64,000 nucleotides of DNA from assembly GCA_963810095.1 (NCBI GenBank), contig CAWEMM010000011.1, forward strand, positions 256,001 through 320,000. The letters run 5' to 3'. Shown piece after piece: positions 35,497-58,403 of this stretch. The position numbers and the translations under genes are program-made. Positions within the stretch are counted from its first letter, which is position 1. The number at the start of each line of letters is the position of its first letter. The stretch comes from an uncultured Chloroflexia bacterium. Its GTDB lineage: Bacteria > Chloroflexota > Anaerolineae > CG2-30-64-16. The notes under the pieces were generated by a model. The model worked only from the letters and a program-made list of their open reading frames with translations. It made no database searches and was not told the origin of the DNA.

Positions 35497-36690
35497 GTGG
35501 CGATGCAGGCAGACGACGTTGTCATCCTAAGTGCGGCACGGACGCCAATCGGCAAATTTCAGGGTGCGCTCGCCGAAACCCCGGCGACGAAACTGGGAGC
35601 CATCGCAATACGGGCTGCTTGCGAGCGGTCGGGCGTGGATCCGAGTTTGATCACCGAAGTGTTCATGGGCAACGTGGTTCAGGCGGGCGAAGGCCAGGCC
35701 CCTGCTCGTCAGGCGGCCATCGGCGCGGGCATCCCCCCGACCACCGGCGCGACAACCATCAACAAGGTGTGCGGGTCGGGCCTGCGCGCCGTCATGTTCG
35801 CCGCATCTGCGATACGGGCGGGCGAAGGCGACTTCTTCGTCGCCGGCGGCATGGAGAACATGAACAGTGCGCCCTACCTGCTGCCCAACGCGCGCTTCGG
35901 CTACCGGCTGGGCAACGGAGAGCTGGTCGACGCAGTCGTCCACGATGGCCTGCTCGATCCTTATGACAACAAGCACATGGGCGAGTTTGCAGAGTGGACC
36001 GCGGAAACCTTCGGCATCAGCCGGCAGGATCAGGACGAGCTTGCCCTGCGCAGCCACCGGCGGGCGGTTGCAGCGCAGGACGAAGGCCGCTTCAAGGCTG
36101 AAATCGCACCGGTGCCCCTGCCCCAGCGCCGCGGCGATCCCATCCCCTACGACACCGACGAAGGACCCCGCCGCAACACGTCCGCGGAACTGCTCGCGGG
36201 TCTGAAGCCCGTCTTCCGTGCGGGCGGCACCGTCACGGCGGGCAACGCGCCGGGCATTACCGACGGCGCGGCTGCGCTAGTCGTGGCGCGGCGCGCGGCG
36301 GCTGATGCCGCAGGGCTTAAGCCCATGGCCAGGATCGTTGGCTATGCGCAAGGACAACTCAAGCCGAGCGAAGTATTTATCGCGCCCGTCAAGGCCATCG
36401 GGCGGCTCTGCGAACGGCTCGGCCGCGAGCCCGGCGACTTCGATCTCTACGAGCTCAACGAGGCTTTCGCGGCGCAAGCAGCGCACAACATCCGTGAACT
36501 GGGACTGGACCCAGAGCGGGTCAACGTGAACGGCGGAGCCATCGCGCTCGGTCACCCCATCGGGGCCAGCGGCGCGCGGGTCCTGACCACGCTTCTGTAC
36601 GCTCTGGCGAGCCGCGGGCTGCACACGGGACTCGCGTCGCTGTGCCTGGGCGGCGGCGAGGCGGTCGCGCTTGCGGTGGAAATGGAGTAA
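35497..36690 (+). CDS. Acetyl-CoA C-acyltransferase (thiolase)
   Basis: INKVCGSG, GGMENM, NEAFAAQ, NGGAIALGHPIGASG and LCLGGG. Confidence 0.95.
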   Translation: MAMQADDVVILSAARTPIGKFQGALAETPATKLGAIAIRAACERSGVDPSLITEVFMGNVVQAGEGQAPARQAAIGAGIPPTTGATTINKVCGSGLRAVMFAASAIRAGEGDFFVAGGMENMNSAPYLLPNARFGYRLGNGELVDAVVHDGLLDPYDNKHMGEFAEWTAETFGISRQDQDELALRSHRRAVAAQDEGRFKAEIAPVPLPQRRGDPIPYDTDEGPRRNTSAELLAGLKPVFRAGGTVTAGNAPGITDGAAALVVARRAAADAAGLKPMARIVGYAQGQLKPSEVFIAPVKAIGRLCERLGREPGDFDLYELNEAFAAQAAHNIRELGLDPERVNVNGGAIALGHPIGASGARVLTTLLYALASRGLHTGLASLCLGGGEAVALAVEME

Positions 36691-39600
36691 TGATCGAACA
36701 CTTGCACCAGGGTGGGCTGCTGCGGGCAAAGCTAAGCCCGCCACAGCCATACCGCCGCACGCTCGCGCGACCACGCGTGCTGGCGTGCCTGACACAGGCG
36801 CTGGAGCACCGTCTGACGGTGGTTCATGCCGGCGCAGGGTACGGCAAGACCACCGCGCTGGCTTCACTGTGGCGTGAGTTGGGCGGCGGGGCCACGAAAC
36901 CGGTCGCTCCAGACCTTGCAACGGCCGCCGGCGGCCCCCACGAGATTGAGCCGGCCTGGCTGACCCTGGACAGCACGGATCGCGAGCCGAGGCAGTTCCT
37001 CGCCTACCTCAGCGCCGCATGCAATGCTGAAGCCGAGTCCTTGGCGCTCGAATGGGAAGGCGGCGCCGGGGCCGACTGGCGCAGGCAGATCGACCGGCTG
37101 TTGAATGCGCTCACGGTGCCCGAACGCGATGCCCGGCTGCTGATCCTCGACGATTTTCACCTCCTGGCGGGCGAGCCAGACGTGCTCGCGATGATGGAAC
37201 GGCTGCTCGCCTACCTCCCCGCAAACCTGCACGTGATCCTTGCGACGCGGCAGCCGGTTCCATTCGAATCCATCGCCGCCTGGCGTGCTCGAGGCGAAGT
37301 GCTCGAGGTCGGGAGCCGGGACCTCGCGTTCACCAGGGACGAGGTGCAGGCGCTCTTCGAGGAGAGCTACGGCGCGGGACTAGACCCGGACGACGCCGCG
37401 ACGCTGACCGAGTTAACCGAAGGCTGGCCGATTGCGTTGCAACTGGCCTGGCAAAGCCTGCGGAGCGGGCTGGGCCCCGGGCAGGTCCGCCTGGAGCCGA
37501 GCCGCGACATTCGCCGGCTGATCGAGCAGGGCAGCGGCCCCTCACACGTCCTTTTCGAGTACCTTGCGCACGAATTGCTCGACCGCCAGCCGCCGAGCGT
37601 CGTCAACTTTCTGCTCGACACCTCGGTCCTGCGCGATCTGACCCCGGGCGCGTGCGCCGCCGTGCGTGAGGACGAGGCGGCGGGAGACCTGCTGATCCGC
37701 GTCCACGAGCTGGACCTGTTCACGGTGTCCCTCGGCGACGGTCACTACCGCTATCACCACCTTTTCCACGACTTCCTCCGCGCGGGCAGCGGCCGACCCT
37801 TCGGGCGTCTGTGTGCGTCACGCCCGCGCCGCCGGTCACTTCGCCAGCGTGGGGCAGGCCGAAGAGGCAGTCTATCACTGGCTGCAAGCGGACGAGTTCC
37901 GGTCGGCGGCCGGGGCGATCGAATCTGCGGCCCCGGCCCTGCTGACGGCCGGCCGGCTTGATGTGGTCGCCGGATGGATCGACGCACTCCCGCCGTCTCT
38001 TCTGGCCGAGAGTCCGGCACTGCAGGCCCTGCTCGGAGACATCTGCCGGCTGCAGAGCCGGTTCGACCAGGCCCTTGGCTGGTACGCGGAGGCCGAGCGC
38101 ATCTATCAGAGCCGCGGCGATCGAGCCGGGATGAGCCGGGCCCTGCACGGGCAGGCGTCCGTCTACCTCGACACGGTCCGCCCCGCCCAAGCCGAGGGGC
38201 TGCTGCAGGAAGCGCTCCGGCTGAGCGAAGGCATTGCCGATCGCGAATCTCAGGCCCGCTTGCTCGACCTGCTGGCCGAGAACAAGCTGAATGTGGGCAA
38301 GCCGGGCGAAGCCGAGGCCCTGCGGGCAGAAGCTCAGAACCTGCGCGAGGAGGGGCCGACCGCAGATGCCTTGAGCGTGCGCGTGAAGCTGCGGACGGGC
38401 CAACTGGCGCAGGCGCGCGCGATGCTGGAGGCGCGCGTCGACGCCGAACGCCGCGCCGCGGAGGGCGGACAAATGGGACCGCCGCGCGCCCACCGGGAGA
38501 CGCGTCCTGATCTTGTCGCTGATCGCTGCGTTACAGGGAAGCGCCGAAACTGCGCTGACGCTTGCGCAGGAAGGCATCCAGCTTGGCGAGCGCCTGAACT
38601 CGCCCTTTGTGACCGCCGTGGGCCAGATGCGGCTCGGGCATGCGCTGCAGATCCAGGCCCACCAGGCCGCTGCCCGAGGCTGGGAAGGCGTCCTACCCGG
38701 TGGAACCGGCCCAAGCCCCGCAGCCAGCCGCGACGAAGCCATCCGGGGATACCGGGCCGCGATCGCGCTGGGCGATGCATTGGACGTGCGCCGGACACGC
38801 GCGGAGGCCATGTGGGGACTCACCCGAGCGTTCGGTTACTTCGGCGGCGCGGGCGAAGGCGGCGGCGACATTAAGGCCGCAGAGGACGCGGCGCGCGAAG
38901 GGCTGGAAATCGCACATTGGGCCGGCGACTTGTGGGTGGGCGCTCTGACCGAAATGACCCTTGGCGCCAGCTATGTCCTGGTAGACCAGCCCCACGAGGG
39001 CCTGCTCGCGCTGAGCCGGGCCACAGCCGCGTTCCGCGACTGCGGCGACACCTTCGGCCGCGCCGCCGCGCGACTTTGGGAGGCCCTGGCCCACGCCGCG
39101 CTCAAGCATCAGGAAGCCGCGCTGGGCGCGCTGCACGAAGCGCTGGGCCTGTGTGCCGTCAACGGGTACGACTATCTGTTGACCGCCCCGACCCTGCTCG
39201 GGCCGCCGGATGCCCGTCGCCTCGTGCCGCTCCTGCTAAAGGCTCGCACGCATCGCCTGCACACGGCATACGTGGGGCGCCTGCTGGCGCTGCTGGATAT
39301 CCCTGCCGTTCAGGCGCATGCCGGTTACCGTCTCCACGTCCAAACGCTTGGGGCGTTCCGGGTCTGGCGCGGCGCGGCCGAGGTGGCGCCGCGCGATTGG
39401 CAGCGCGACAAGGCGCGGCAGTTGTTCCAACTGTTCGTCACGGAGCGCGGACGGTGGCTGAATCGGGACGAAGTGGTCGAGCGCCTGTGGCCGAGCCTCG
39501 GGCCGGAAGCGGCCGTGCGCGACTTCAAGGTGGCGCTCAACGCGCTGAACCGGGCCGTCGAGCCGGGCCATGCGCCCGACGAACCGTTCGCGTTCGTCGC

Positions 39601-40108
39601 ACGCGAAGGCGCGGCATACCGCCTGCGCCCCGACGCAGATTTGTGGCTCGACCTCGCGGATTTTGAGCGCCGCTGCGAGGCCGGCCTGCGCGGGCCGCTG
39701 GGCGGGCCGGAGGCAGAGGCCACGCTGGAGCACCTGCGAGCGGGACTGCGCCTCTACCAGGGCGACTACCTGCCGGACGCGCTCTACGAAGATTGGGCGA
39801 CCGAGACGCGCGAGCGAATGCTCACGCTCTACCTGCGGGCGGCCGACCGGCTGGCCACCGCCCTGCTCGAACGCGGCCAGCACGAAGAAGCCCTGGACGT
39901 CTGCGGCGCAATCCTGGCGCGCGATGCTTGCTGGGAGCGCGCGTACCGCATCGAAATGCAGGCGTGCGCGCTGCTGGGCAATCGACCGCAGGCGCTGAAA
40001 TCTTATCAGCGCTGCCGCACCGTCCTCGCGGCCCAACTCGACGTCCCTCCTTCCCCAGAAACGGTCTCCCTCGCCGCCGCGCTCGGTCTGCACGGAGGCC
40101 GGCTGTAA
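36690..40108 (+). CDS. Large transcriptional activator: MalT-like ATPase + TPR + C-terminal winged-helix/BTAD (frameshifts near 37790 and 38505)
   Basis: AGAGYGKTT, LILDDFH, TEGWP and YRYHHLF; QTLGAFRV..WQRDKAR..ERLWP, LYQGDYL and WERAYR. Confidence 0.88.
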
Positions 40109-40136: not shown

Positions 40137-40173
40137 CGTCCCAGCCATTTCGCGTGCGCGAGGATTGCGAGCT

Positions 40174-40428
40174 ATGCCCGACGACTCTCTGCCAACACCT
40201 GCCGAACCCAACCTCGACTCTTTCGTCTTGCGCTTCGTGTCCAACCGTGAAGGCCCTTCAGTTCGAGCAGGCGCCGAAAGCGGGTCCGACGACGGCTGCG
40301 GCGCAGTTGGATGGCACGGCGTCATCCGCCACGTGCAGACGAATCGTGAGCGGGCTTTCAGCCGTTGGACAGATGCCGTCGCATTTATCTCCGAATTCGT
40401 GCACGTGGGAGAGAACAAGGATGAGTGA
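40174..40428 (+). CDS. Small hypothetical protein
   Basis: DSFVLRF..WHGVIRHVQT..RAFSRW..AVAFI; stop overlaps the next start. Confidence 0.7.
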   Translation: MPDDSLPTPAEPNLDSFVLRFVSNREGPSVRAGAESGSDDGCGAVGWHGVIRHVQTNRERAFSRWTDAVAFISEFVHVGENKDE

Positions 40429-41467
40429 GTCCAGCGCCGGGATCGTCAGCGTAGGCATGTATGTGCCGGAGCCCGTGATGACGGCGGCCGACATCGCCGC
40501 GGCCAGTGGGATCGAAGAGTGGGTGGTGCGCGAGAAGTTCGGCATCACGCAGAAGCACGTGCCCGGCCCCGACGACCACACCAATGCGATGGCCGTGCGG
40601 GCCGCGCTCGACTGCCTCGCACACGCGGACATAAAGCCCGAGGACATCGACGTCGTCCTGTGCACGACGGAAGAGTGGAAAGAGTACCTGCTTTGGACCG
40701 CCGGCATCAAGCTGGCGTACGAAATCGGCGCAACGCGGGCGTGGGCCATCGACGTACAGATGCGCTGTGGGACGACCATCGCCGCCATGAAGATGGCGAA
40801 GGACATGATGCTGGCCGACGAGGAGATCCGGACTGTGCTCATCGCCGGAGGCTACCGCAACGGGGACCTCATCAATTACCGAAACCACCGCACGTCGTTC
40901 ATGTTCAACCTTGCAGCCGGCGCCGGCGCGATGCTGCTGCAGCGAGGGTATCCCCGCAACCGGGTCTTGGGCAGCCACCTGATGACCGACGGCTACATGA
41001 GCGAGCACGTTGTCGTGCCCGCCAGCGGTACCAAGCGCTTTCCCACCGATGCGGCCGTGGCAGAGGGCCTGTTTTACCTGGACCTCGTCGAGCCGGAAGC
41101 CATGAAGAGCCGGCTGAACGCGGTTTCGATGGACAACTGGATGCACTGCGTGGACGAGGCGCTGCGCAAGTCTGGGTCCAAGCCCGACGGCGCGGGCGGA
41201 ACCCGCTCCTACACCCGGGCCGACATCGGCTACCTCAACGTCCTGCACATGAAGCCATCGGCGCACAAGGACATGCTCCAGCGACTGGGGCTGACCGAAG
41301 AACAGTCCGTCTACCTTTCAGACTACGGCCACATCGGGCAGCAGGATGCCATGGTTTCGATCGTCGAGGGTCTGCGGCAGGGCCGGCTCAAGGACGGCGA
41401 CCTGATGGTCATCGTCGCAGCCGGCATTGGCTACACCTGGGGCGCGGGGTGCGTGCAGTGGGGGTAG
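40421..41467 (+). CDS. 3-oxoacyl-ACP synthase III-like protein (non-canonical Cys-His-His)
   Basis: FabH fold motifs; MRCGTT, VLHMK, YGHIGQ and AAGIGYTWG. Confidence 0.88.
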   Translation: MSESSAGIVSVGMYVPEPVMTAADIAAASGIEEWVVREKFGITQKHVPGPDDHTNAMAVRAALDCLAHADIKPEDIDVVLCTTEEWKEYLLWTAGIKLAYEIGATRAWAIDVQMRCGTTIAAMKMAKDMMLADEEIRTVLIAGGYRNGDLINYRNHRTSFMFNLAAGAGAMLLQRGYPRNRVLGSHLMTDGYMSEHVVVPASGTKRFPTDAAVAEGLFYLDLVEPEAMKSRLNAVSMDNWMHCVDEALRKSGSKPDGAGGTRSYTRADIGYLNVLHMKPSAHKDMLQRLGLTEEQSVYLSDYGHIGQQDAMVSIVEGLRQGRLKDGDLMVIVAAGIGYTWGAGCVQWG

Positions 41468-41563: not shown

Positions 41564-41575
41564 AAGGAGTGTCTT

Positions 41576-42379
41576 ATGCCGACGATTTGCGTGAACGACA
41601 TCGACCTCTACTATGAGCTTTACGGCGACGGCGAGCCGCTCGTGCTCATCTCGGGGCTCGGGTATGGGCTTTGGCAGTGGCACAAGATGATCCCCTTCCT
41701 GGCCGGGCGGCGGCAGGTCATCGCCTTCGATAACCGCGGCGCAGGGCAAACGGCGAAGCCCGCTGGCCCCTACACCGCACCCATGCTCGCCGAGGACACG
41801 GCCCGCCTGATCGAGGAAGTGGTCGGTGGGCCGGCGGCAGTCATGGGCCACTCGATGGGCGGCTTCATCGCCCAGCAGCTTGCGCTGGCCCGGCCCGACC
41901 TGGTCAGCAAGCTCATCCTGGCCTCGACCAACTTCGGCGGCCCCAATGCCGCGCCGGTAACGCCCGAGGCCCTGGCCGCCATGCTGGATCGTTCGGGCGA
42001 CCCGGCCGACGTCGTGCGCCGGGGGGTCGGCATCGCCACCGCGCCCGGTTTTATCGACGCGCATCCTGACGTTCTCGCCGAGCTGATGAACTACCGGTTC
42101 ACGAACCCCGTGCCGCCCGAGGCCTACCAGGCCCAGATGGCGATCGGACTCGGACTGCTTTCGCCCGCGGCCGCTTTCGAGGGGAAGCTCGGCGCGGTCC
42201 GGGTTCCCACGCTCATCCTGTTCGGCGCGCACGACAACGTCGTGCCGCCCGCCAATGCCCGTCTGCTTGCCGCTCAGCTGCCGCAAAGCAAAATCGTGAT
42301 CCTGCCCGGCGCAGGCCACATGTTCCCGATTGAAGCGCCGGAAGAGGCTGCGCAGTCCGTATTGGAGTTCCTGGGATGA
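41576..42379 (+). CDS. Alpha/beta hydrolase
   Basis: FDNRGAG, GHSMGG, GAHD and AGH; TAAGGAG SD. Confidence 0.92.
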   Translation: MPTICVNDIDLYYELYGDGEPLVLISGLGYGLWQWHKMIPFLAGRRQVIAFDNRGAGQTAKPAGPYTAPMLAEDTARLIEEVVGGPAAVMGHSMGGFIAQQLALARPDLVSKLILASTNFGGPNAAPVTPEALAAMLDRSGDPADVVRRGVGIATAPGFIDAHPDVLAELMNYRFTNPVPPEAYQAQMAIGLGLLSPAAAFEGKLGAVRVPTLILFGAHDNVVPPANARLLAAQLPQSKIVILPGAGHMFPIEAPEEAAQSVLEFLG

Positions 42380-43432
42380 CGGGCAACGAAGCCGCACGCC
42401 ACCAACCAGCACGCTATGCCCAGATCCTCGCGACCGGCCGCTACGTGCCCGAACGGGTGATGACCAACGCGGAGTTTGAGCCGCTGGTGGGTAAGCCCGT
42501 CGACCAGTGGCTCGTCGAGAAGGTCGGCATCCGCGAGCGACATGTCATGGCGGACGACCAGGCAACGTCGGATCTCATCGTGCCCGCCTGCCGGCAAGCA
42601 TTGGAACGCGCGGGGCTCGAGCCGGCGGACGTGGACCTGATCGTCGTCGCGACCGACACGCCCGACTACATCAGCCCGGCCACAGCTTCGGTGGTGCAGG
42701 CGAAGCTCGGGGCGGACCAGGCGGGGACCTACGACGTCAATTGCGCATGTGCGGCGTGGGTGACAGGGCTGGACGCGGCTGCGCGCATGATCGCGACGGA
42801 CCCGGACGTGAACCGGGTGTTGGTTGCGGGTGCGTACGGCATGACCAAGTTCCTGGATTGGCACGACATCTACACGGCAACCCTGTTTGCCGACGGCGCG
42901 GGCGCGGTGGTGCTTGGGGCCGGCGCCGAGCCGGGTTTCGTCGCCGGCAAACTCGTCGGCGCAGGCGACTATCACGACGCGCTCGGCATCTACTCCGGGC
43001 GGCACCTACCGCCCCGTCACCGACGCCAGCATGGCCGAACACGGACGGCCGCGGGTGCAGTTCGTCAAGAAGTTCCCGGCGACGTTCAACAGCGAGAACT
43101 GGCCGCAGTTGGTCAATGACGTCTGCCGCAAGGCCGGGTGGACGGTGGACGAGGTCGATTTCTTCCTGTTCACCCAGCTGAACCTGAGGACGATCGAGGA
43201 CGTGATGCAGCGGCTCGGCCAGCCCATGAGCAAGACCCACTGGATCATGGACAAGTGGGGGTACACCGGCTCCGCCTGCATCCCGATGGCCCTGGACGAC
43301 GCGGTGGAGCAGGGCAAGCTAAGCCCGGGCATGAAGGTGGTTTTCTGCGCCACGGGCGGCGGCATGGCCATGGCCTGTGATGCGTGGGTGTGGACGAGCG
43401 AGCTGGCATGGCACCCTGATCCAACTGATTGA
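42376..43432 (+). CDS. 3-oxoacyl-ACP synthase III-like protein lacking the canonical His and Asn (frameshift near 42995)
   Basis: GIRERH, ATDTPD, DVNCACAA, LFADGAGA, FTQLN and WGYTGSA. Confidence 0.88.
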
Positions 43433-43500
43433 ACTGGTGTTCCTGATGCACCGTGGAAGAATCAGGTAAATCAGTCCGATCTGTTCAATCTGCGTGCTAT
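43408..43500. repeat. CTGAT/ATCAG palindrome family (copy 3), overlapping the KAS III stop
   Basis: ATGGCACCCTGATCCAACTGATTGAACTGG...ATCAGTCCGATCTGTTCAATCTGCGTGCTAT. Confidence 0.7.
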
Positions 43501-43521
43501 TTCCTCCCCGGAGGGCGTGAT

Positions 43522-46162: not shown

Positions 46163-46215
46163 GCGGGGCCAACAGGTCCACCGCACCGCCCGTAACCGTG
46201 AATTGGAGTGGAGTG

Positions 46216-49548: not shown

Positions 49549-49585
49549 AGTGACCAGCCGGCGCCCGGCTGGGGGTAGGTCTTTG

Positions 49586-51699: not shown

Positions 51700-52101
51700 A
51701 TGGAGCTTAGGGTAGGGGCCGTTGCCGTGGCGCGGCGCACGTTCACCCAGGAAGACTTCAACCGCTTCGCCGGCCTCAGCGGCGACGACAACCCGATCCA
51801 TGTGGATCCCGAGTTCGCCGCCCGCACGCGCTTCGGCCGCACGGTGTGCCACGGCATGCTGCTGTACAGCTCCATTTGCGCTGCCCTGAGTCGGGAGCTC
51901 GACCCCGCGTTCGTGCAGCACGAGCAGGAACTGATGTTCCTGACGCCCACGTTTGCGGGTGAAGAGGTCGAAATCCGCCTTGAAGTCACCGGCCTGGCGC
52001 CAGACGCGGGGCTCGCCGAGCTCGCGACGGTGATCTACCGTCCGGACGGCGCCATTGCCTGCCAGGGTCGGACACGGATCGGCGCGGGCCGGCGCCGGTG
52101 A
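51700..52101 (+). CDS. MaoC/(R)-specific enoyl-CoA hydratase family protein
   Basis: FAGLSGDDNPIHVD..FG..CHG hydratase-2 motif. Confidence 0.9.
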   Translation: MELRVGAVAVARRTFTQEDFNRFAGLSGDDNPIHVDPEFAARTRFGRTVCHGMLLYSSICAALSRELDPAFVQHEQELMFLTPTFAGEEVEIRLEVTGLAPDAGLAELATVIYRPDGAIACQGRTRIGAGRRR

Positions 52102-52156
52102 GTCGGCGCGGGAGGCAGGGGAGCAGCACGCCGCGCACGAGGCGGCGAGCGAGGGT

Positions 52157-52598
52157 GTGACACTCAAGGGGCTGCGCATCGGCCAGACCGCTCAGGTCGA
52201 ACGCGTCTTCACCGCCGGCGACCTTGCCGAGTATGTCGCGCTGACCGGCGACACGAATCCCGCCTACCTGGCCGGCCGCAGTGCCGAGGTCACGGGCTTG
52301 CAGGTCCCGAACGGGCTTCTGGGCGGCCTCTTCTCGTTCCTCCTGGGCACTCGGCTGCCCGGGCGGGGCACCAACTGGCTCAAGCAGCGCCTGGTCTTCC
52401 CGTCGCCCGCTGCCGGCGGCGCGCTGGCCCGGCCGGGCGACCCGGTCACCGCGCAGGTCGAGATTGTGCGGCTGCGCGCCGGATAAAGACCTGGTGAACC
52501 TGCGAACCACCTGCACCTGGCCAGCGGAGTGCGCCGTGTGCCGGGGCGAGGCTCTCGTCCTCGTGAAGGATCTCGAATCGGCTCGGGCGCCGGCGTGA
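52157..52598 (+). CDS. MaoC-like hotdog protein lacking the catalytic His (frameshift near 52480)
   Basis: LTGDTNPAY, LPGRGT..LKQ.L.F, then KDLVNLRTTC..VCRGEALV in the next frame. Confidence 0.8.
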
Positions 52599-52730: not shown

Positions 52731-54157
52731 ATGCATTCCAATGTCAGTCGAAAATGGCTTGTCGTCAGCCTGGTGGTCGTGCTGAGCATGCTGCTGGCGG
52801 CCTGCGGCGGCGCCGCGCCCGCCACCGCGCCCACCCAGGCGCCTGCGCCCACGACCGCGCCTGTTGCGGAACCGACCAAGGCTCCTGAGCCGACCACGGC
52901 CCCTGAGCCCACCAAGGCGCCAGAGCCCACTGCGGCGCCCACCGAGGCCACCGCGCCCACTCGGCCGCCGAGCCCACCAAAGAGACTGCGGCTGCCACGG
53001 GCAAGGAACTCGTCATCGGCGAGTTGACAGACGATTCGGGGCTCCTGGCGCCCTACGGCCCGCTCTTCGAGCGCGGCTTCGAAATCGGCCTTGACTATGC
53101 GACGGACGGCAGCCGGGTGATCGCCGGGCGGCCGGTCAAGGTTGTGCTCAAGGACACCGTCAGCAAGCCGGACGTCGGCGCAACCTTGGCACGCGAGGCG
53201 CTGGAGAAGGACGGCGCCGAGATCCTCCTGGGCGTACCCAGCTCGCCGACGGCGCTTGCTGTGGGCGGCATCGCCACCGAAAACAAGAAGATCTACATCG
53301 CCGGTCCCGCGGCTGCCGATGCCATCACGGGCGCCAACTTCAGCCCGTATGTCTTCCGCTGTGGCCGCCAGAACATCCAGGACGCGCTGACCATGGGCGG
53401 CGGCCTCCTCGGCCTGGGCAAGAAGTTCGTCCAGATCTCGCAGGACAATGCGTTCGGGCAAGGCTCGGCCGCGGGCTTCTACAAGATCGTGAAGGCTGGA
53501 GGCGGGGCCTTCCCCCTCAATGACACTGAGAAAGGCGTTGGCGCAGTCTTCGCCCCGCCCGACACGACCGACTTCACCCCCTACATCAACCAGATCCTGG
53601 ACTCGGGGGCCGAGGTGCTCATCGTGACGTGGTCTGGCAACGGCTTCGTGCCAATGTTCCAGCAGATGCAGCAGCTGGGCGTCTTCGATTCCATGAAGGT
53701 CGCCACCGGCTTCGGCGACAACCAGGCGCTGAAGGCGGGCTACGAGGCGGCGAAGGATTCGTACGGCGTCAGCGTCTACCACTACTCGTTGTTCGACAAC
53801 CCGGTCAACAAGTACCTGACCGACGAGCACATCAAGCGCTTCAACGTCCCGCCGGACCTCTGGGCCGAAGCGGGCTTCAACTGCGCGGTGATGGTGAAGC
53901 AGGCTCTGGAAGCCACGAACGGCGACACGGACGGCGACAAGATGATCAAGGCCCTCGAGGGCATGAAGTTCCAGGGCCCGAAGGGTGACTACGAGGTGCG
54001 GGCGACCGACCATGCGCTGCTGCAGCCCATGACTTATGTCAAGCTGACGAACACCACCGACCCGGACTTCAAGTTCTTCGACCTGGTTACGCTCTTCAAG
54101 CCGGAACAGACTGCGCCGCCGTGTGCGGTGCCGGCCGATCAGAACCGCTGCAAGTAG
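52731..54157 (+). CDS. Liv-type ABC transporter substrate-binding lipoprotein (frameshift near 52960)
   Basis: Lipobox LAAC, PT(K/T)APE repeats, then LIVBP-like SG.LAPYG, DNAFG, DFTPYI and GPKG. Confidence 0.9.
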
Positions 54158-54183
54158 CAGCCCATCCCGAGCCGGGAAGCTCG

Positions 54184-54256
54184 CCACGAAGACTCGAAGA
54201 CACGAAGGCGCACTGAAGCAATCTTCGGGCAACTTGGTGTCTTTGAGTCTTAGTGG
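54184..54256. repeat. ACACRAAG-unit palindrome (family copy 4)
   Basis: CCACGAAGACTCGAAGACACGAAG...CTTGGTGTCTTTGAGTCTTAGTGG. Confidence 0.75.
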
Positions 54257-54287
54257 TGAACACCGGCTTTCGCCAGGGAGACCATCT

Positions 54288-55046
54288 ATGCCCGACACGA
54301 TCATCGAGACCCGCCAGGTCGCAAAACACTTTGGCGGCCTGCACGCGGTCGACGGAGTGGACCTGAAGGTGACTGAGGGCGCCATGCACTCGATCATCGG
54401 TCCCAACGGTGCAGGCAAGACCACGCTCTTCAACCTGATCAGCGGCTATCTCAAGCCGACGTCGGGCCAAGTATTCCTCCGCGGCCGCGAAGTCACCGGC
54501 CTCCCCCTGCATCGCATGGCGCATCTCGGGCTCGGACGCTCGTTCCAGATCACGAACGTTTTCCCCACCCTCACCGTGCTCGAAAACGTCCGTCTCTCGG
54601 CACAGGCGCTCGGGCACGACAACTTCAAGCTCTGGCAGGGCGCCGGCAAATTCCACGGCTATGAGGACAAAGCACGGGCCGCGCTGCACGACGTGGGGCT
54701 GGAAGAGAAAGCCGGCGTGCCCGCCTTGGTGCTGCCCCACGGCGACAAGCGCAAGCTGGAGCTTGCCATCATCCTCGCCGGCGACCCACAGGTGCTGCTG
54801 CTGGACGAGCCCACGGCCGGCATGGCGTCCGAGCAGGTGCCGGCACTCGTCGAAATGATCGCCCGCATCCGAGCCGCGGGGAACAAGACAATCATCCTGG
54901 TCGAGCATAACATGGGCATTGTCATGAACATCTCGGACCGCATCACCGTGATGCACCAGGGCCAGGTGCTGGCGGAAGGCAGCCCGCGCGAGATTGCGGC
55001 CAACGAGGCCGTCCAGAAGGCGTACCTGGGGGAAACGCATGACTGA
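54288..55046 (+). CDS. ABC transporter ATP-binding protein (LivG-like)
   Basis: GPNGAGKTT, RSFQ, LLDEPTAG, VEH and AYLG. Confidence 0.93.
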   Translation: MPDTIIETRQVAKHFGGLHAVDGVDLKVTEGAMHSIIGPNGAGKTTLFNLISGYLKPTSGQVFLRGREVTGLPLHRMAHLGLGRSFQITNVFPTLTVLENVRLSAQALGHDNFKLWQGAGKFHGYEDKARAALHDVGLEEKAGVPALVLPHGDKRKLELAIILAGDPQVLLLDEPTAGMASEQVPALVEMIARIRAAGNKTIILVEHNMGIVMNISDRITVMHQGQVLAEGSPREIAANEAVQKAYLGETHD

Positions 55047-55825
55047 CATCCTTGAGGTCAACGCCATCCATACCTTCATCAACCAGTTCCACATCCTGGA
55101 AGGGGTCTCGCTCACGGTGCCTCAGGGCAGCATCACGGCGCTGCTCGGCCGCAACGGAGCGGGCAAGACCACGACGTTGCGCTCCATCATGGGACTCAAT
55201 CCCCCCCGGGAAGGCACGATCGTCTACGCCGGCGTGCCGATTCACGGCCAGACAGCCTACCAGATCGCCGCCCGCGGCATCGGCTACGTGCCCGAATACC
55301 GGGCCATCTTCCGTTCGCTGACCGTCGAGGAAAACCTCAAGATCGCGGAGCGTTCCAAGAACGACCTCGCGAAGCGCGGCGACCTCATCTTCGAGCTCTT
55401 CCCGGATTTGAAACGGTTCTACCGCTTGCCCGGCGGGCAGCTCTCGGGCGGCCAACAGCAGATGCTCGCCATTGCCCGTGCGTTGGTGCCGGAAAACCGG
55501 CTCCTGTTAGTCGACGAACCGAGTGAGGGGCTGGCCCCGATCCTCATCGACGCGATCGTGGTTGCACTGCGCCGGCTCTCGGCGCACGTGACGATCCTCC
55601 TCGTCGAGCAGAACTTCCGCATGGCGTCACAGCTCGCCGACCGCTACTACATTGTCGACGATGGCCAGACGGTCAACTCAGGGCGGATGGCCGACCTGAT
55701 CAACGACCGGCGCGCTCATCACGCGGTATCTTGGGGCAGGCTACGCCGGGGCGGCAAGTCACGCGGCCCCGCCGAACGAAACAGCCGCAGCCGCGGAAAC
55801 AGGTGTGGAGGGAGTGAACCAATGA
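55039..55825 (+). CDS. ABC transporter ATP-binding protein (LivF-like; frameshift near 55710)
   Basis: GRNGAGKTT, LSGGQQQ, DEPSEGLAP and VEQN; the shifted frame gives ALITRYLG and stops in an ATGA overlap at 55822-55825. Confidence 0.9.
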
Positions 55826-57334
55826 CCGCCTTCTTTCGCCGCAACCGGCCACTCCTGGTCACGCTCTTGATCGTGCTGCTGGTGCTGGTCTGGATGGTGA
55901 ATCGCTTTCCGGCGCGGGTCAGCGCCAGCATCCTACTGTCGGGGCTGACGCTGGGTGCGCTCTATTTTCTTGTGGCGGCCGGCCTGTCGCTGATCTTCGG
56001 CCTCATGGACGTGCTCAATTTTGCGCACGGTGTCATCTTCATGATCGGGGCCTATTTTGGATTCACGGCCTACGCGAACCCCCGGCTCCTCCTCAACACG
56101 CTGCCCTTCGTGCTCGCCCTTCTGGGCGGTGCGCAGATCGGCCGGTGGATCGGCGGCATGCTGCCGCCGCGCTTCGGCAAGCGCTGGCTCGACACGGCCG
56201 CTCTCGTCATCATGTTCCTGCTCTCCGGCGCACTCCTGGTGTTTGCGCTGCGCGGCTTCAACATCACCGTGCTCACCGCGGCTGCGTCGACCGTCGCAGG
56301 CGGCGCGGTCGCCACGGACGTCGCCCAGGAGGTCGCGGCCGTCTTCCTGCCGCGCATCGTGCTCCTCACGGTGTCGGGCTTCTTCCTCGGCCTCGCCCTG
56401 AGCCGGACGAGCCCGGTCGAGGTGCGCCAGAAAACCCGTTGGCCGGCCGCCGCCATCGGCGCAGTCCTGGTCGCTGCGGCTTTCGCCATCACGCCGGTCC
56501 GCAGCCCCGCGGAAGCCTTTCTGCTGGCGACATCGTCCAACGCCCGCTTCGTCCTCGCGCTTCTCGTGGGGCTGCTGGTGGGCGGCGGACTCGGTGCTCT
56601 CGTCGAAACGTCCGTGATCCGGCCGCTATACGCCCGGCCCGTCTACCAGGTGCTCCTGACACTCGGCCTCAGCTATGTGGGCACTGAATTGGTCAGGAGC
56701 GTTTGGGGCACGGCCGGCTTCTTCATGACCACCCCCGCGCTTATTCGCCGGGTCGGGTGAAGGCTGTCCATCTCCCAACCTGTGGTCTTGGTTCAGCGAC
56801 CACTGCCAATCCATCCTCGTGCTGGGCAGGCCTTTCCCGTCCTACCGGCTCTTCATCATCGCGCTCGGCGTGGCGATGTTCGTAGTCATTTGGTTGATCC
56901 TGAAGAAGACGCGGCTCGGTATTATCATCCGGGCCGGCGTGCAAGACAGCGAGATGGTGCAAGCACTCGGCATCAACGTCCGCCGGGTCTTCACCATCGT
57001 CTTTGCGATTGGGTGCGCGCTGGCCGCCGTGGGCGGCGTGGCGGCCGCCCCGTTTCTGGGCGTCAACCTTGGACTCGGCGCGGAACTCCAGCTGCAGGGG
57101 TTTATTGCGGTCGTGATTGGCGGCATGGGGAACTTCGTCGGCGCGGCAGTGGGCGCGCTGCTGGTCGGCATGGCACGCGCATTTGGCGACCAGTTGGTCC
57201 TCTCCGGCATCCAGCTGCCCTGGATGAACGAGGCGCTGCGCATGTCGCCGGCGATCGCCCGTGCTTCGACCGTGCTCATCATGGCGCTCGTGCTGCTGCT
57301 CCGGCCCGCGGGGCTGTTCGGGAAGAAGGAGTAA
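55822..57334 (+). CDS. ABC transporter permease (LivH-like, enlarged; frameshifts near 56740-56815)
   Basis: AAGLSLIFGLMDVLNFAHG; KTRLGIIIRAG; AVVIGGMG; LRPAGLFG. Confidence 0.88.
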
Positions 57335-57338
57335 CGAC

Positions 57339-58403
57339 GTGGACCAGACGAGCTCACGCACGCGCGCCGTGCGCGGCGCCGGCAGATGGGGCGGCCTCCT
57401 GGTGCTGCTTCTGCTGGCCGCGTTGCCGTTCCTCCTCGCGCTGTTCACCGGGCAGCCGGTCAATGCCGGGACGCCCAAGTTCTGGCAGGGCTTGATCATC
57501 CAGGTATTTATCGCGGCAGTCTATGCCATGAGCTATGACCTGCTGTTCGGTTACACCGGCATCCTCAGCTTCGGCCACGCCATGTTCTTCGGCACCGGCG
57601 CGTATGTGGCCGGCATCCTGCTCAAGGAAGCCGGCTGGTCACTCGGACCGGCGGTGCTTGCGGTGATTGGCGTCGCAGTGCTCCAAAGCCTCCTGGTCGG
57701 CGTGGTGTCGCTCCGGGTCCGGGGGGTGTACTTTGCCATGGCCACCCTGGCCTTCTCGCAGATGTTCTACATCCTCGTCCAAGCCACCGACTTGCGCGAC
57801 ATTACCGGCGCAGAAGACGGCCTGCACGGCATCCCCGTGCCCGCCTGGTTAAGCCCGACCGACCATCGCCTGACGTTCTACTTCGTCGCGCTGGCGTTCT
57901 GCGTGGTGTGTTACCTGATGGCCCGGCGCCTGGTCGATTCGCCGCCCGGTCGCGTCATGGTGGCGATCCGCGAGAACGAACCGCGAGCCCAGATGATTGG
58001 TTACAACACCTTCGCTTACAAGCTCCTCGCACTCACGGTTGCTGGCGTCCTGGCGGCGCTGGCCGGCATGATGAATGCGCTGTGGAACGGGAATGCAACG
58101 CCCGAGGTCCTCAGCGTCGAGACGACGATCAACGCGCTGCTAATGACCATCATCGGCGGGGTGGGCACGCTGATCGGGCCCATGCTGGGCGCGGCCGTCT
58201 TCCAGCTGCTGGGCTACTGGCTGAACAGCGTGTTCGGCTCGCAGTGGCAGCTCATCTTCGGCGCGGTCTACGTTCTGCTGGTCGTCTTCCTGCCCTATGG
58301 TATCGTCGGGACGTACTATGCCCGGCGCAACGATATCCGAGCCGGCTGGCAGCGCCTGCTCCGTCCGTTGCACCCGCCCGCAAAGCCATCCGAGCACCTG
58401 TAG
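57339..58403 (+). CDS. ABC transporter permease (LivM-like)
   Basis: GYTGILSFGHA, GVYFAMATLA, AIRENE and IIGGVGT. Confidence 0.93.
   Translation: MDQTSSRTRAVRGAGRWGGLLVLLLLAALPFLLALFTGQPVNAGTPKFWQGLIIQVFIAAVYAMSYDLLFGYTGILSFGHAMFFGTGAYVAGILLKEAGWSLGPAVLAVIGVAVLQSLLVGVVSLRVRGVYFAMATLAFSQMFYILVQATDLRDITGAEDGLHGIPVPAWLSPTDHRLTFYFVALAFCVVCYLMARRLVDSPPGRVMVAIRENEPRAQMIGYNTFAYKLLALTVAGVLAALAGMMNALWNGNATPEVLSVETTINALLMTIIGGVGTLIGPMLGAAVFQLLGYWLNSVFGSQWQLIFGAVYVLLVVFLPYGIVGTYYARRNDIRAGWQRLLRPLHPPAKPSEHL

Follow-up and report, generated by a model that had tools for sequence, protein, structure and literature searches.

A derived, frame-damaged copy of a recurrent Chloroflexota gene cluster with a possible role in the use of 3-hydroxyalkanoate-type acids

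The window analysed here (the whole stretch of 64,000 nucleotides) contains, at positions 35497-58403, a derived version, damaged in its reading frames, of a locus that is conserved among Chloroflexota (Anaerolineae and relatives). The gene cluster is real and its core recurs across many Chloroflexota genomes. On a tentative reading, to which we give somewhat less than an even chance, the cluster would serve the inducible import of 3-hydroxyalkanoate-type acids and their CoA-dependent, (R)-specific use. Most likely, the cargo is a small carboxylic acid that already carries a C3 hydroxyl group or a C2 double bond and is handled as a CoA thioester, without an acyl-CoA dehydrogenase; (R)-3-hydroxyalkanoates or short PHA-type oligo-esters are the most likely candidate substrates.

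Pfam domain scans over the 28 ORFs of the cluster, together with NCBIfam profiles, recovered on the + strand every gene family named in a preliminary description, i.e. a thiolase, a MalT-like/BTAD regulator, a small ORF, two KAS III-like genes, two alpha/beta hydrolases, three AMP-ligases, an M29-like gene, a nitroreductase, two MaoC-like genes and five Liv-type ABC genes. The features are as follows.

35497..36690, + strand: type-II (biosynthetic-type) acetyl-CoA C-acetyltransferase (thiolase), 397 aa, intact; accessory
36642..40108, + strand: REG, large STAND-type activator with MalT-like NTPase, TPR and C-terminal wHTH+BTAD, in three frames
40174..40428, + strand: SP, orphan small protein, 84 aa, first gene after REG
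40421..41467, + strand: KAS1, KAS III-like, PRK06840 family, 348 aa, intact
41576..42379, + strand: ABH1, alpha/beta hydrolase, distantly PcaD-like, 267 aa, intact
42376..43432, + strand: KAS2, core KAS III-like enzyme, one frame break near 43000-43044
43453..45066, + strand: LIG1, acyl-CoA ligase, 537 aa, intact; ABH2 follows directly
45098..46162, + strand: ABH2, highly conserved alpha/beta hydrolase, 354 aa, anchor of the core
46192..47274, + strand: M29-like protein, about 360 aa, intact; accessory
47306..48857, + strand: LIG2, acyl-CoA ligase, one frame break at 47620/47622
48861..49553, + strand: nitroreductase-family protein, one frame break near 49295; accessory
49699..50061, no strand: tandem repeat, two copies of ~161 nt, in the 620-nt spacer before LIG3
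50176..51696, + strand: LIG3, acyl-CoA ligase, 506 aa, intact; the MaoC pair follows directly
51700..52101, + strand: MaoC1, PhaJ-like (R)-specific enoyl-CoA hydratase, 133 aa, intact, MaoC_dehydratas domain
52055..52598, + strand: MaoC2, degenerate MaoC-like partner, one frame break near 52470
52731..54157, + strand: SBP, lipoprotein substrate-binding protein, Peripla_BP_6 211.8 bits, frame break near 52950
54123..55046, + strand: LivG-like ABC ATPase, ABC_tran and BCA_ABC_TP_C
54994..55750, + strand: LivF-like ABC ATPase, ABC_tran match covering residues 35-177 of ORF 54994-56760 (588 aa)
55822..57334, + strand: LivH-like permease, one frame break at 56721/56729
57261..58403, + strand: LivM-like permease, intact, BPD_transp_2 135.5 bits

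The statement that the cluster has neither ACP nor acyl-CoA dehydrogenase holds, no PP-binding (ACP) or Acyl-CoA_dh Pfam domain being found among the 28 ORFs. The spacers outside these ORFs contain the small ORF and the repeat, and nothing else. The repeat copies are 84% identical by repeat search and 92% by blastn; a third copy was found neither in the window nor in 80 related loci, and Rfam gave no match; the 118-aa ORF that lies over them has no Pfam match and is probably not a gene.

At least eight reading-frame breaks fall inside 35497-58403; the preliminary description had passed over them. KAS2 (the second KAS III-like gene), LIG2, the nitroreductase, MaoC2, SBP and LivH are broken once each, and REG twice (36717-37781, 37819-38502 and 38504-40072, in three frames). 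Pfam and NCBIfam place the REG domains on three separate ORFs (AAA_22/MalT N-terminus; TPR_12/TPR_MalT; BTAD), and an intact orthologue of 1087 aa (L012:3423-6686) aligns successively to window frames 3, 1 and 2. Judged by this alignment, REG is a single gene of ~1,100 aa split by two frame breaks. In KAS2, the alignments of orthologues switch from frame 1 to frame 2; ACP_syn_III is on the 5′ ORF, and the 3′ ORF matches the C-terminal part of FabH. In the LIG2 region, where AMP-binding profile positions 3-94 and 113-384 are found on two ORFs, the alignments of LIG1 and orthologues pass from frame 2 to frame 3, and so does that of a MaoC orthologue in the MaoC2 region. The Pfam Nitroreductase match stops at residue 148, and the alignment of an orthologue from locus L036 moves from frame 3 (48867-49298) to frame 1 (49291-49545). 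Frame 3, from 52731, encodes the SBP signal peptide, 'LLAAC' lipobox and Pro/Thr linker, and frame 2 the mature domain, with the break inside the linker. The LivF frame continues into LivH with no stop codon; orthologues from L004 align to 55048-55707 only for LivF and, for the 501-aa LivH, to frame 1 (residues 1-300) and frame 2 (residues 301-501). Because the frames are broken, many of the overlaps that had earned these genes the label 'often overlapping' are artefacts. Similar breaks occur outside the cluster. At 8.8-11.1 kb, one of two M42 peptidase paralogues occupies 2 frames and the other 3; elsewhere in the window, Pfam matches to MutY and an FMN dehydrogenase are only partial. Therefore, the breaks are likely assembly indels. 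If they are real, their number is such that the window copy may be non-functional, which counts against the uptake reading.

ABH2 has 5500 homologues, the best 120 with 63-100% identity over at least 95% of the query length, and its relatives are encoded on 515 genome stretches. For comparison, 80 related loci were used, nearly all of them from Chloroflexota; counts that depend on flank carry their own denominators. Common to these loci is a core made, in order, of the STAND/BTAD activator, the orphan small protein, a KAS III-like enzyme, a ligase or 4-hydroxybutyrate-type CoA-transferase and then ABH2, plus a Liv-type ABC importer. In 42 of 73 loci the gene that immediately precedes ABH2 encodes a LIG1-type ligase or a CoA-transferase; KAS2 lies within 2.6 kb upstream in 40 of 67 and REG upstream in 26 of 51; downstream are SBP (36/50) and livG (34/47), and LivM was found by tblastn in 23 of the 80 loci, many of which end before it. 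This recurrence of gene order exceeds chance. Also frequent are a FabG-like reductase (SDR, 23/63), thiolase with DUF35 (34/71 and 32/68) and MaoC. The SDR and the thiolase/DUF35 pair, which complete the scheme in relatives, are absent from the window, and Acyl-CoA_dh is absent from the annotated recurrent gene clusters of the related loci. Thus, the core gene set is co-conserved, the point on which the preliminary description had made its own reading depend; the 23 kb as a whole is not one conserved unit, three of its genes being accessory. The window thiolase (Thiolase_N and Thiolase_C; NCBIfam PRK08235 474 bits, under the cut-off of 526) has a counterpart upstream of ABH2 in none of the 49 loci with sufficient flank, and the nitroreductase in 1 of 50. 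An orthologue of the M29-like protein (65% identity) adjoins ABH2 in L003 only (1/80); its Peptidase_M29 match (52.8 bits) covers profile positions 203-353 of 406 only, and AmpS is its sole PDB sequence match (E 4.6e-4).

SP, whose 3′ end shares 8 nt with the start of KAS1, was detected by HMM in 26 of the 80 loci and in the window, mostly between REG and KAS1, KAS2 or SDR. Its homologues, about 65-80 aa long, number at least 1000; most are unnamed and the others are always called 'hypothetical protein'. SP has no Pfam match. Its AF2 model (pLDDT 74) has three strands and one helix and gave no Foldseek match in the PDB at E ≤ 0.001. KAS1 scores 457 bits against PRK06840 (cut-off 315) and ABH1 scores 119 bits for Abhydrolase_1 (Pfam) and 120.6 bits for TIGR02427 pcaD, under the cut-off of 255.85. 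Close orthologues (at least 50% identity) of KAS1 occur upstream of ABH2 in 7/57 loci and downstream in 4/50, and those of ABH1 in 7/61 and 12/47, respectively.

Several leads point to (R)-3-hydroxyacyl chemistry, as proposed earlier: MaoC1, ABH2, the CoA-transferase in the slot upstream of ABH2 (13/73 loci) and the PHA loci (3/80). In L036, L049 and L079, genes for PhaC, a PhaE-like protein and a second PhaC-like protein lie directly upstream of the hydrolase-ligase-ABH2 module and are co-directional with it; in between are a FabG-type SDR (L049 and L079) and KAS2 (L079). PHA synthase genes adjoin the module in these three loci only, which are fairly closely related to one another, and none is present in the 64-kb window. 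This scarcity counts against a PHA-type reading, as do the sub-threshold score of ABH2 and its match over the N-terminal half only, the closeness of generic esterases, the poorly modelled cap and the best PDB matches of SBP (3n0x/3nnd, E 5e-58), entries that name no ligand. The PHA-type model needs no role for KAS1, KAS2, SP, the M29-like protein or the nitroreductase, which also counts against it. LIG1 carries AMP-binding and AMP-binding_C domains (PRK06187 474.9 bits versus a cut-off of 476), and the solved structures closest to it are those of a fatty-acyl and a feruloyl-CoA synthetase (8weu/8wev, E 4e-111), again against 3-hydroxyalkanoates. The slot directly upstream of ABH2 holds a LIG1-type ligase in 29 of 73 loci and, in the 13 mentioned, a 4-hydroxybutyrate-CoA-transferase-like gene (E 1e-104); this alternation speaks for the simple activation of a short acid with CoA. 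LIG3 has both ligase domains (AMP-binding and AMP-binding_C, Pfam), and a ligase directly precedes MaoC in 7 of the 21 loci having MaoC. Collectively, the preliminary reading is supported in part: by the co-conserved core, the non-canonical KAS2 and the (R)-3-hydroxyacyl leads, though not across the whole 23 kb.

For use of 3-hydroxyalkanoate-type acids, an order of events can be proposed wholly from family membership and gene order. The STAND/BTAD activator would switch on the operons, with SP encoded first after it, and a lipoprotein-dependent Liv-type ABC system would import the acid. Ester bonds would be split by ABH1 and by ABH2, which is distantly related to the intracellular PHB depolymerase; LIG1-3, or elsewhere the 4-hydroxybutyrate-type CoA-transferase, would make the CoA thioester. 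PhaJ-like MaoC1, paired with degenerate MaoC2, would interconvert (R)-3-hydroxyacyl-CoA and enoyl-CoA, and a thiolase would yield acetyl-CoA: here the canonical enzyme at 35497, in relatives thiolase+DUF35 together with the FabG-like reductase. Since the SDR and the thiolase/DUF35 pair are missing, the oxidation step has no candidate in the window, a further point against this reading. The KAS III-like enzymes that retain Cys alone would probably carry the acyl group as an acyl-S-enzyme before handing it to some acceptor.

FabH has a Cys-His-Asn triad, whereas KAS2 has Cys-Thr-Tyr and retains Cys alone: Cys is invariant, His is replaced by Thr in 39/40 sequences and Asn by Tyr in 40/40, which bears out the earlier guess of a non-canonical KAS III. 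In the KAS1 group (13 sequences), Cys is invariant, 'G-H' replaces the FabH 'G-N' and no conserved His was found at the FabH His position. MaoC1 matches the (R)-specific enoyl-CoA hydratase PhaJ of A. caviae best in the PDB (1iq6, E 1e-20, full length) and retains Asp and His ('GDDNPIH'); MaoC2 ('GDTNPAY') has Tyr at the position of this His, no Pfam match and 55.6 bits for NCBIfam PRK08190. On sequence and fold similarity, the nearest characterised relative of ABH2 is the Bacillus thuringiensis PHB depolymerase: this intracellular type is the top match in NCBIfam (i_nPHAscl, 91 bits, far under the cut-off of 300), among PDB sequences (8ynv, profile search, E 1e-21) and among PDB folds (8ynw, Foldseek, E 2e-15, TM 0.61/0.72). 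In the NCBIfam and PDB sequence searches the match is confined to the N-terminal half of ABH2; its large cap is poorly modelled, and in Foldseek numerous generic esterases come within a factor of ten of PhaZ. H40, W109, S110 and H335 are invariant in ABH2, and its invariant G-W-S-x-G box, with Trp at x1, is that of the B. thuringiensis-type PHB depolymerase family, for which this Trp is reported (PMC2666664). Also in favour of the reading, an acyl-CoA synthetase of P. putida is reported to be located on PHA granules together with PhaC and PhaZ (PMC2959000).

All genes with a protein-family match between positions 35497 and 58403 of the window (G+C ∼65%) lie on the + strand. The features are the following.

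35497-36690, + strand, type-II thiolase, intact
36642-40108, + strand, REG, large regulator, cut by frame breaks
40174-40428, + strand, SP, small ORF, intact
40421-41467, + strand, KAS1, KAS III-like enzyme of the PRK06840 family, intact
41576-42379, + strand, ABH1, alpha/beta hydrolase, intact
42376-43432, + strand, KAS2, second KAS III-like enzyme, frame break
43453-45066, + strand, LIG1, acyl-CoA ligase, intact
45098-46162, + strand, ABH2, 354-aa alpha/beta hydrolase, intact
46192-47274, + strand, M29-like protein, intact, colinear with its L003 orthologue (65% identical)
47306-48857, + strand, LIG2, acyl-CoA ligase, frame break
48861-49553, + strand, nitroreductase-family protein, frame break
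49699-50061, two-copy repeat of ∼161 nt within a 620-nt spacer
50176-51696, + strand, LIG3, acyl-CoA ligase, intact
51700-52598, + strand, MaoC1 and MaoC2, hydratase-type pair, MaoC1 intact, MaoC2 with a frame break
52731-54157, + strand, SBP, lipoprotein binding protein, frame break
54123-58403, + strand, LivG, LivF, LivH and LivM homologues, LivG and LivM intact

The cluster is devoid of acyl-CoA dehydrogenase and ACP, as the preliminary description had it: Acyl-CoA_dh and PP-binding domains were not found with Pfam. Three spacers (40108-40174, 49553-50176 and 52598-52731) point to several transcription units. Over 34-60 kb no Rfam family reaches the gathering score, and sigma-70-like promoters (3, shuffled mean 2.0) and terminators (7, shuffled 9.7) do not rise above shuffled sequence. 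The repeat copies between the nitroreductase gene and LIG3 (49699-49859 and 49901-50061) are G+C-rich, tandem and 84-92% identical, and are flanked by 29-nt repeats and long imperfect inverted repeats; no further copy occurs in the window or in the best 80 related loci, and Rfam gives no match. Directly after LivM, outside the cluster, a 478-aa MFS transporter is encoded on the same strand (58476-59912), with a counterpart in none of the best 80 loci. On the other side, directly upstream, a bacterial microcompartment-type gene set occupies 27132-34256.

27132-27989, RpiB/LacAB, microcompartment-type set
31549-31911, EutN/CcmL, microcompartment-type set
31912-33501, aldehyde dehydrogenase, microcompartment-type set
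33468-34256, BMC-domain shell protein, microcompartment-type set
34670-35449, NfsA-like nitroreductase, after the set

At least eight frame breaks are present in ∼22 kb of the cluster. An intact 1087-aa orthologue of REG in Bellilinea caldifistulae GOMI-1 (L012:3423-6686) aligns in turn to frame 3 (36717-37781), frame 1 (37819-38502) and frame 2 (38504-40072), so that the ‘MalT-like/BTAD activator’ is a single gene cut twice. Frame shifts are found in KAS2 (near 43000-43044), LIG2 (between 47620 and 47622), the nitroreductase gene (near 49295), MaoC2 (near 52470) and LivH (at 56721/56729), into which LivF, lacking a stop codon, reads through. In SBP, the signal peptide, the ‘LLAAC’ lipobox and a Pro/Thr-rich linker are in frame 3 and the mature domain is in frame 2. 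Short C or G runs occur at several break sites. Since breaks are as common outside the cluster, where two paralogues of M42 peptidase (8.8-11.1 kb) are spread across two and three frames, assembly indels are preferred to local decay; the breaks are probably assembly errors, real decay of this copy being possible. MutY and FMN dehydrogenase, in side regions 60515-61303 and 62398-63225, give partial domain matches only, and the M42 peptidase paralogues form a tandem of three on the - strand (7792-11124). By exact look-up, two of the broken ORFs carry protein annotations on their contig of origin (365,843 nt), and no independent assembly containing the broken pieces turned up. The genes had been described as often overlapping; their co-directional packing is confirmed, whereas much of the overlap is a product of the frame breaks.

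Related loci were collected by scanning genome contigs with a 25-sequence alignment of ABH2. At least 601 stretches matched, of which at least 515 encode an ABH2 relative, and the best 80 were kept with flanks of up to 10 kb per side. Chloroflexota MAGs account for almost all of them, together with B. caldifistulae GOMI-1 (L012), which is cultured. Four have other phylum labels: L032, L040 and L078 keep parts of the cluster, and L047 (OZ253939.1, a 6.5-Mb chromosome labelled Cyclobacteriaceae) has a lone ABH2 homologue, 59% identical (10001-11029), with no cluster gene within 10 kb. Genes were counted by tblastn with pieces of the window and orthologue representatives, a locus being counted only if its flank was long enough to show the gene; the fractions that follow refer to these best 80 loci.

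The slot directly upstream of ABH2 is filled by a LIG1-type ligase in 29/73 loci and by a CoA-transferase in 13/73 (either in 42/73). KAS2 lies at most 2.6 kb upstream of ABH2 in 40/67, and a FabG-like reductase (SDR) and REG are upstream in 23/63 and 26/51. An SCP-x/archaeal-type thiolase is encoded directly downstream in 34/71, with DUF35 in 32/68, a further alpha/beta hydrolase (abhX) in 24/59 and MaoC in 17/55; SBP and livG are downstream in 36/50 and 34/47. The fullest order, REG-SDR-KAS2-CoA-transferase-ABH2-thiolase-DUF35-abhX-MaoC-SBP-livG-livF-livH-livM, occurs in L019, L048, L062, L069 and L080, and is kept in Bellilinea minus abhX. Linkage of KAS2, activation enzyme and importer extends across Anaerolineales, Caldilineales, Promineifilaceae, Thermoflexales and Chloroflexia bins. 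Variations include a single 813-aa open frame that joins a CoA-transferase to a Peripla_BP_6 binding-protein domain (L036:4911-7352) and a second SBP-like gene, 33-36% identical to the window SBP, between CoA-transferase and ABH2 (L014, L015 and L026).

Several genes of the window behave differently. The type-II thiolase has a counterpart in 0/49 loci and the nitroreductase in 1/50 (L036, where the order LIG3-nitroreductase-MaoC-MaoC is also found), and an M29-like gene stands beside ABH2 in 1/80, namely in L003, where it follows ABH2 as in the window. SDR, the SCP-x type thiolase/DUF35 pair and CoA-transferase were found nowhere in the 64-kb window by tblastn. In L002, the closest relative with enough sequence among the best 80 (ABH2 77% identical, tblastn), KAS1 and ABH1 are separated by an SDR, and a thiolase is encoded farther along. 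Because the core recurs while the extras of the window do not, the locus is best regarded as a conserved core with lineage-specific accessories. Co-conservation, on which the preliminary description had made its ∼23-kb cluster depend, thus holds for the core and fails for the type-II thiolase, the M29-like gene and the nitroreductase.

KAS2 of Bellilinea matches FabH structures with E 1e-42, and KAS1 matches with E 6e-27. Residues are discussed by the numbering of the FabH triad, Cys-His-Asn. Window KAS2 and its 39 orthologues all keep the nucleophile Cys (40/40), with Thr at the His position in 39/40 and Tyr at the Asn position in 40/40. In KAS1 (13 sequences), Cys is invariant, ‘G-H’ stands at the Asn position and no conserved His occupies the His position. 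The triad is incomplete in both, the HQAN and GNT motifs being visible in the FabH rows. Intact KAS2 of L012 reaches 195 bits against PRK09352, below the cut-off of 249, and KAS1 reaches 457 bits against PRK06840 (cut-off 315), a family named by similarity only. Since Thr and Tyr replace His and Asn, canonical decarboxylative condensation is not expected of KAS2. In the FabH mechanism Cys is acylated by acyl-CoA and, by analogy, the same acylation may occur in KAS2. The preliminary description had guessed at non-decarboxylating enzymes or transferases; Cys-Thr-Tyr in place of Cys-His-Asn agrees with the former, and KAS2 may act as a transferase as well. In KAS1 and its 12 orthologues, an invariant Glu also precedes the nucleophile Cys by ∼32 residues, and the FabH Asn is replaced by an invariant His; HMG-CoA synthase has a similar Glu-Cys spacing. 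An HMG-CoA-synthase-like role of KAS1 was considered and not adopted, because the score against NCBIfam HMGCS is only 57 bits (cut-off 244).

ABH2, the anchoring hydrolase, has 5500 homologues at E ≤ 0.001 among 8000 candidates scored; the best 120 of them share 63-100% identity with the query along at least 95% of its length, and their named sources are Chloroflexota. A protein-language-model search of the Atlas returned ABH2-like clusters in Actinomycetota (128 members) and Archaea (57 members, commonest phylum Methanobacteriota), each at 0.99, so that the family may reach beyond Chloroflexota. The top match is a B. thuringiensis-type intracellular PHB depolymerase in NCBIfam (i_nPHAscl, NF050089; 91.4 bits, cut-off 300; residues 35-142 on profile 20-124 of 288), in the PDB profile search (8ynv, E 1e-21) and in Foldseek with the AF2 model (pLDDT 77; 8ynw, E 2e-15, TM 0.61/0.72), with small margins over generic esterases. 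Among 25 sequences, W109 and S110 of the G-W-S-x-G box are invariant and G108 and G114 nearly so; H335 is invariant, and D273 is an invariant candidate acid. According to the accessible text of the PHA Depolymerase Engineering Database article (PMC2666664), Trp at x1 marks intracellular nPHA(scl) depolymerases with a lipase box.

Genes of PHA synthesis are linked to the module in three clear cases among the best 80 loci. Three co-directional genes immediately precede the module in L036, L049 and L079. They encode PhaC (PhaC_N, 217 bits, together with an alpha/beta hydrolase domain), a PhaE-like protein (PF09712, 24-31 bits) and a second, shorter PhaC-like protein; the order in L079 is REG-SP-PhaC-PhaE-PhaC'-SDR-KAS2-hydrolase-LIG. 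These loci are fairly close relatives (hydrolases labelled c21, 74-86% identical), and the support they lend to a PHA link is thin. L038 has one PhaC-like gene on the opposite strand, and no PhaC is encoded in the 64-kb window.

The nearest solved relatives of LIG1 are 8weu (fatty-acyl) and 8wev (feruloyl-CoA synthetase), with E 4e-111 to 5e-111, followed by 4-coumarate-CoA ligases (E 3e-71). The Bellilinea CoA-transferase resembles 4-hydroxybutyrate CoA-transferase (E 1e-104) and scores 279.6 bits against the butyryl-CoA:acetate model (cut-off 674.8). In the same locus, the SDR lies on the cut-off for FabG (296.3 bits versus 296), and the thiolase passes that of PRK06064 (455 versus 420) and reaches 416 bits (cut-off 600) with the Methanothermococcus acetoacetyl-CoA thiolase model. 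Over its full length (residues 3-125), MaoC1 of the window matches 1iq6, an (R)-specific enoyl-CoA hydratase from A. caviae (E 1e-20). PhaJ-type enzymes have their catalytic Asp and His in a D-x-N-P-x-H motif; MaoC1, a single hot-dog MaoC domain, has it as ‘GDDNPIH’. In MaoC2 the motif reads ‘GDTNPAY’, without the PhaJ-type Asp/His feature, and MaoC2 is therefore probably a non-catalytic partner. The M29-like protein matches Peptidase_M29 with 52.8 bits (cut-off 27) over profile 203-353 of 406 only, and AmpS in the PDB with E 4.6e-4.

In the importer, a Liv/HAAT set, the binding protein has a Peripla_BP_6 domain, both permeases are of the BPD_transp_2 type, and one of the two ATPases carries BCA_ABC_TP_C. 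The best PDB relatives of the window SBP are 3n0x and 3nnd of R. palustris (E 5e-58), in which the ligand is not named; further relatives, 4ey3, 4f06 and 4evs of the same organism, are presumably an aromatic-acid-binding group. The window SBP has no LivJ/K-type (Leu/Ile/Val) NCBIfam match.

When the spacer between REG and KAS1 is aligned to its L002 counterpart, it shows the kind of pattern that coding sequence gives, and the core of the predicted product is conserved, so that SP is considered a real gene. The 84-aa protein has the core SFVIRFV, a variable loop and then WRGxIRHVQTxEExxFTxWxEAxxFIxRFV. Its profile finds one copy each in 26/80 best loci and in the window, mostly between REG and the first enzyme gene (KAS1, KAS2 or SDR). 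SP has no Pfam family, even at E ≤ 1, and at least 1000 homologues of ∼65-80 aa, most without a name and the others called ‘hypothetical protein’, as are all Atlas clusters near it (scores 0.84-0.87). The AF2 model (pLDDT 74) has three strands and a helix, and Foldseek gave no PDB match at E ≤ 0.001. Longer or fused forms number 21 among the proteins found, one of them fused to an alpha/beta hydrolase. The position of the gene suggests a co-regulator or an operon leader protein.

The component superfamilies are all known already. Narrow literature searches returned no published description of the arrangement, the Cys-Thr-Tyr KAS III-like clade, the ABH2 clade or SP, none of this locus among the papers listed on Anaerolineae polyhydroxyalkanoate genes, and nothing relevant among those listed on KAS III-like acyltransferases that lack the catalytic triad. 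A search on the SBP relatives 3N0X and 3NND was equally empty, and one on Chloroflexi DUF35/thiolase yielded only a preprint on an archaeal fatty-acid synthase.

From gene order and its conservation, residue patterns and family similarities, which are direct observations, we infer catalytic steps, direction of flux and substrate. Activation would be by ligase or short-chain CoA-transferase; the hydratase would be PhaJ-like, the reductase FabG/PhaB-like and the anchoring hydrolase PhaZ-like, with a thiolase present, a linked importer and no dehydrogenase step encoded. Such a gene set fits a pathway whose acids arrive with C3 oxidised or C2 unsaturated beforehand. Inducible uptake of a small acid followed by processing as CoA thioester is likely. 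As to its identity, (R)-3-hydroxyalkanoates together with their short oligo-esters are the best single candidate, put forward tentatively. A bolder proposal, to which we give little credence, is that KAS2, the CoA-activating enzyme and ABH2, headed by SP and the STAND/BTAD activator, form acyl-transfer machinery of an undescribed type that works without ACP. The Cys of KAS2 would accept the acyl group from CoA and pass it on, either to ABH2 or to an acceptor with a hydroxyl; 3-hydroxyacyl esters or oligo-esters would be built or remodelled without a PhaC synthase, and SP would act as a co-regulator or adaptor of a novel sort.

Uptake and use of (R)-3-hydroxyalkanoate-type acids have to be weighed against readings in which the same enzymes work in another direction or on another substrate. 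The module could instead build chains or supply monomers, dependent on CoA and independent of ACP, with products going to lipids or PHA. Imported or endogenous acids would be activated, extended by thiolase/DUF35 or a KAS III-like enzyme, reduced by the FabG-like enzyme, dehydrated by MaoC and, in some genomes, reduced by an MDR enzyme, ABH2 being the releasing thioesterase or transferase. The relatives do combine the archaeal-type thiolase (PRK06064) with DUF35, FabG-type SDR and MaoC, and ketothiolase/DUF35, (R)-specific reductase and MaoC are named as components of the fatty-acid synthase complex from S. acidocaldarius in the accessible part of the preprint (bioRxiv 10.1101/2024.07.05.601840). 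FabG and MaoC are both (R)-specific, the stereochemistry of biosynthesis; in 3/80 best loci the module stands behind PHA synthase genes, and an MDR reductase follows ABH2 in L004 and L006. Yet these are the only two of the 80 with an enoyl reductase, KAS2 is without the His and Asn of decarboxylative condensation, the linked ABC importer (SBP 36/50) and MalT-like inducible activator fit catabolism better, and tblastn found no archaeal-type thiolase/DUF35 pair with SDR and MaoC in the window, which lacks pair and SDR alike; chain building is therefore considered unlikely. It is rather improbable, too, that the side chains of hydroxycinnamates or other 2-enoic acids are shortened by beta-oxidation, a route in which import and ligation would be followed by MaoC hydration, SDR oxidation and thiolase/DUF35 cleavage to aroyl-CoA and acetyl-CoA, with the alpha/beta hydrolases as cinnamoyl esterases or thioesterases. 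A 2-enoic acid has no need of acyl-CoA dehydrogenase, feruloyl-CoA synthetase (8wev, E 5e-111) is among the two best solved relatives of LIG1, those of SBP include 4ey3, 4f06 and 4evs, and the thiolase/DUF35 pairs resemble BbsAB (157.8 and 42.7 bits, both far below cut-off). Against aromatic substrates speak the equal score of 8weu, labelled fatty-acyl-CoA synthase, the proximity of MaoC1 to short-chain PhaJ and the replacement of the ligase in 13/73 loci by a 4-hydroxybutyrate/butyrate-type family-I CoA-transferase, family-I enzymes acting on short aliphatic acids.

The same replacement bears on an Ole-like or beta-lactone secondary-metabolite cluster. In the OleABCD pathway OleA is the condensing enzyme, OleD the reductase and OleC an ATP-dependent synthetase, acting with OleB; here KAS III, SDR, ligase and hydrolase would take the parts of OleA, OleD, OleC and OleB under a SARP/BTAD activator. 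The orders KAS1-SDR-LIG-ABH2' (L029, L037 and L039) and SDR-KAS2-LIG-ABH2 (L020 and L068) recall it, and BTAD regulators are typical of secondary-metabolite clusters. But a CoA-transferase in the ligase slot of 13/73 loci is incompatible with an ATP-dependent lactone synthetase; OleA keeps the His and Asn that KAS2 is without, and transport is represented by a linked importer, with no conserved exporter (0/80 for the MFS gene at 58476). The Ole-like interpretation, highly improbable, was rejected on account of the transferase substitution, the missing KAS2 residues and the absence of SDR from the window. Finally, the 23 kb may not be one system: a conserved REG-to-ABH2 core and importer would lie beside unrelated acyl-CoA genes, or the whole would be a decaying pseudogene array. 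Rarity of the type-II thiolase (0/49), M29-like (1/80) and nitroreductase (1/50) genes, the three spacers and at least eight frame breaks in ∼22 kb are in keeping with this. Conversely, the genes are co-directional and tightly packed, L036 repeats LIG3-nitroreductase-MaoC-MaoC, L003 repeats ABH2 followed by the M29-like gene, and breaks outside the cluster are equally frequent. A mosaic or decaying locus is thus partly true for the accessories and doubtful for the cluster as a whole.

In sludge, sediments and soils, Chloroflexota with this locus are abundant and poorly understood. Knowledge of its substrate would account for a nutritional trait that is widespread in these filaments, possibly the scavenging of PHA-derived acids that neighbours shed, and would give functions to three uncharacterised families: the Cys-Thr-Tyr KAS III-like clade, the 354-aa hydrolase clade and the ∼70-aa orphan with at least 1000 members. 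Because the carrier B. caldifistulae GOMI-1 is cultured, these ideas are directly testable.

Comparison with known systems places each part of the locus. With Liv/HAAT importers (R. palustris 3n0x/3nnd) it shares the usual five components, but its lipoprotein SBP carries a long Pro/Thr linker, and the SBP of L012 is a weak match to the E. coli-type Leu/Ile/Val binding protein (40 bits, cut-off 477). KAS1 and KAS2 have the fold and Cys motif position of FabH/KAS III (PDB 8vd9 and 1hn9), whereas the cluster has no ACP gene and KAS2 no His or Asn. REG shares the NTPase and TPR type of MalT (NCBIfam PRK04841, 159 bits, far below cut-off) and the wHTH+BTAD module of AfsR (score also far below cut-off); this SARP module is N-terminal in AfsR and C-terminal in REG (profile 24-261 of 986 versus residues 269-520 of the last ORF), and, unlike in either, SP follows the regulator in the window and in most of the 26 SP-holding loci. 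As in the archaeal fatty-acid synthase, so far as the accessible part of the preprint describes it (bioRxiv 10.1101/2024.07.05.601840), the relatives carry thiolase, DUF35, SDR and MaoC side by side and would act on CoA esters without ACP; to the components named there they add importer, KAS2, ABH2 and ligase or transferase, with MDR in 2/80 best loci. B. thuringiensis PhaZ (8ynv/8ynw) is, like ABH2, a cytoplasmic alpha/beta hydrolase with G-W-S-x-G and Trp at x1. Identity is 19-20%, however, the NCBIfam match covers the N-terminal half only, and ABH2 is ∼55 residues longer, with a highly conserved cap bearing PVSPYGFGG and AGSGGG motifs that have no PhaZ match; its neighbours are a KAS III-like gene, ligase and importer, not pha genes, in 77/80 best loci. 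The pseudomonad PHA cycle, as outlined in the accessible text of PMC2959000, comprises PhaC, PhaZ and a granule-bound acyl-CoA synthetase. The pairing of hydrolase and ligase is common to both, MaoC1 matches A. caviae PhaJ, and the module of L036, L049 and L079 follows PhaC genes. What the cluster adds, in a window without PhaC, is an importer, an activator of the STAND/BTAD type, SP and Cys-only KAS III-like enzymes, none of which, to our knowledge, belongs to the PHA cycle as described. The locus is accordingly classified as an acid-uptake and CoA-processing type, related to PHA metabolism.
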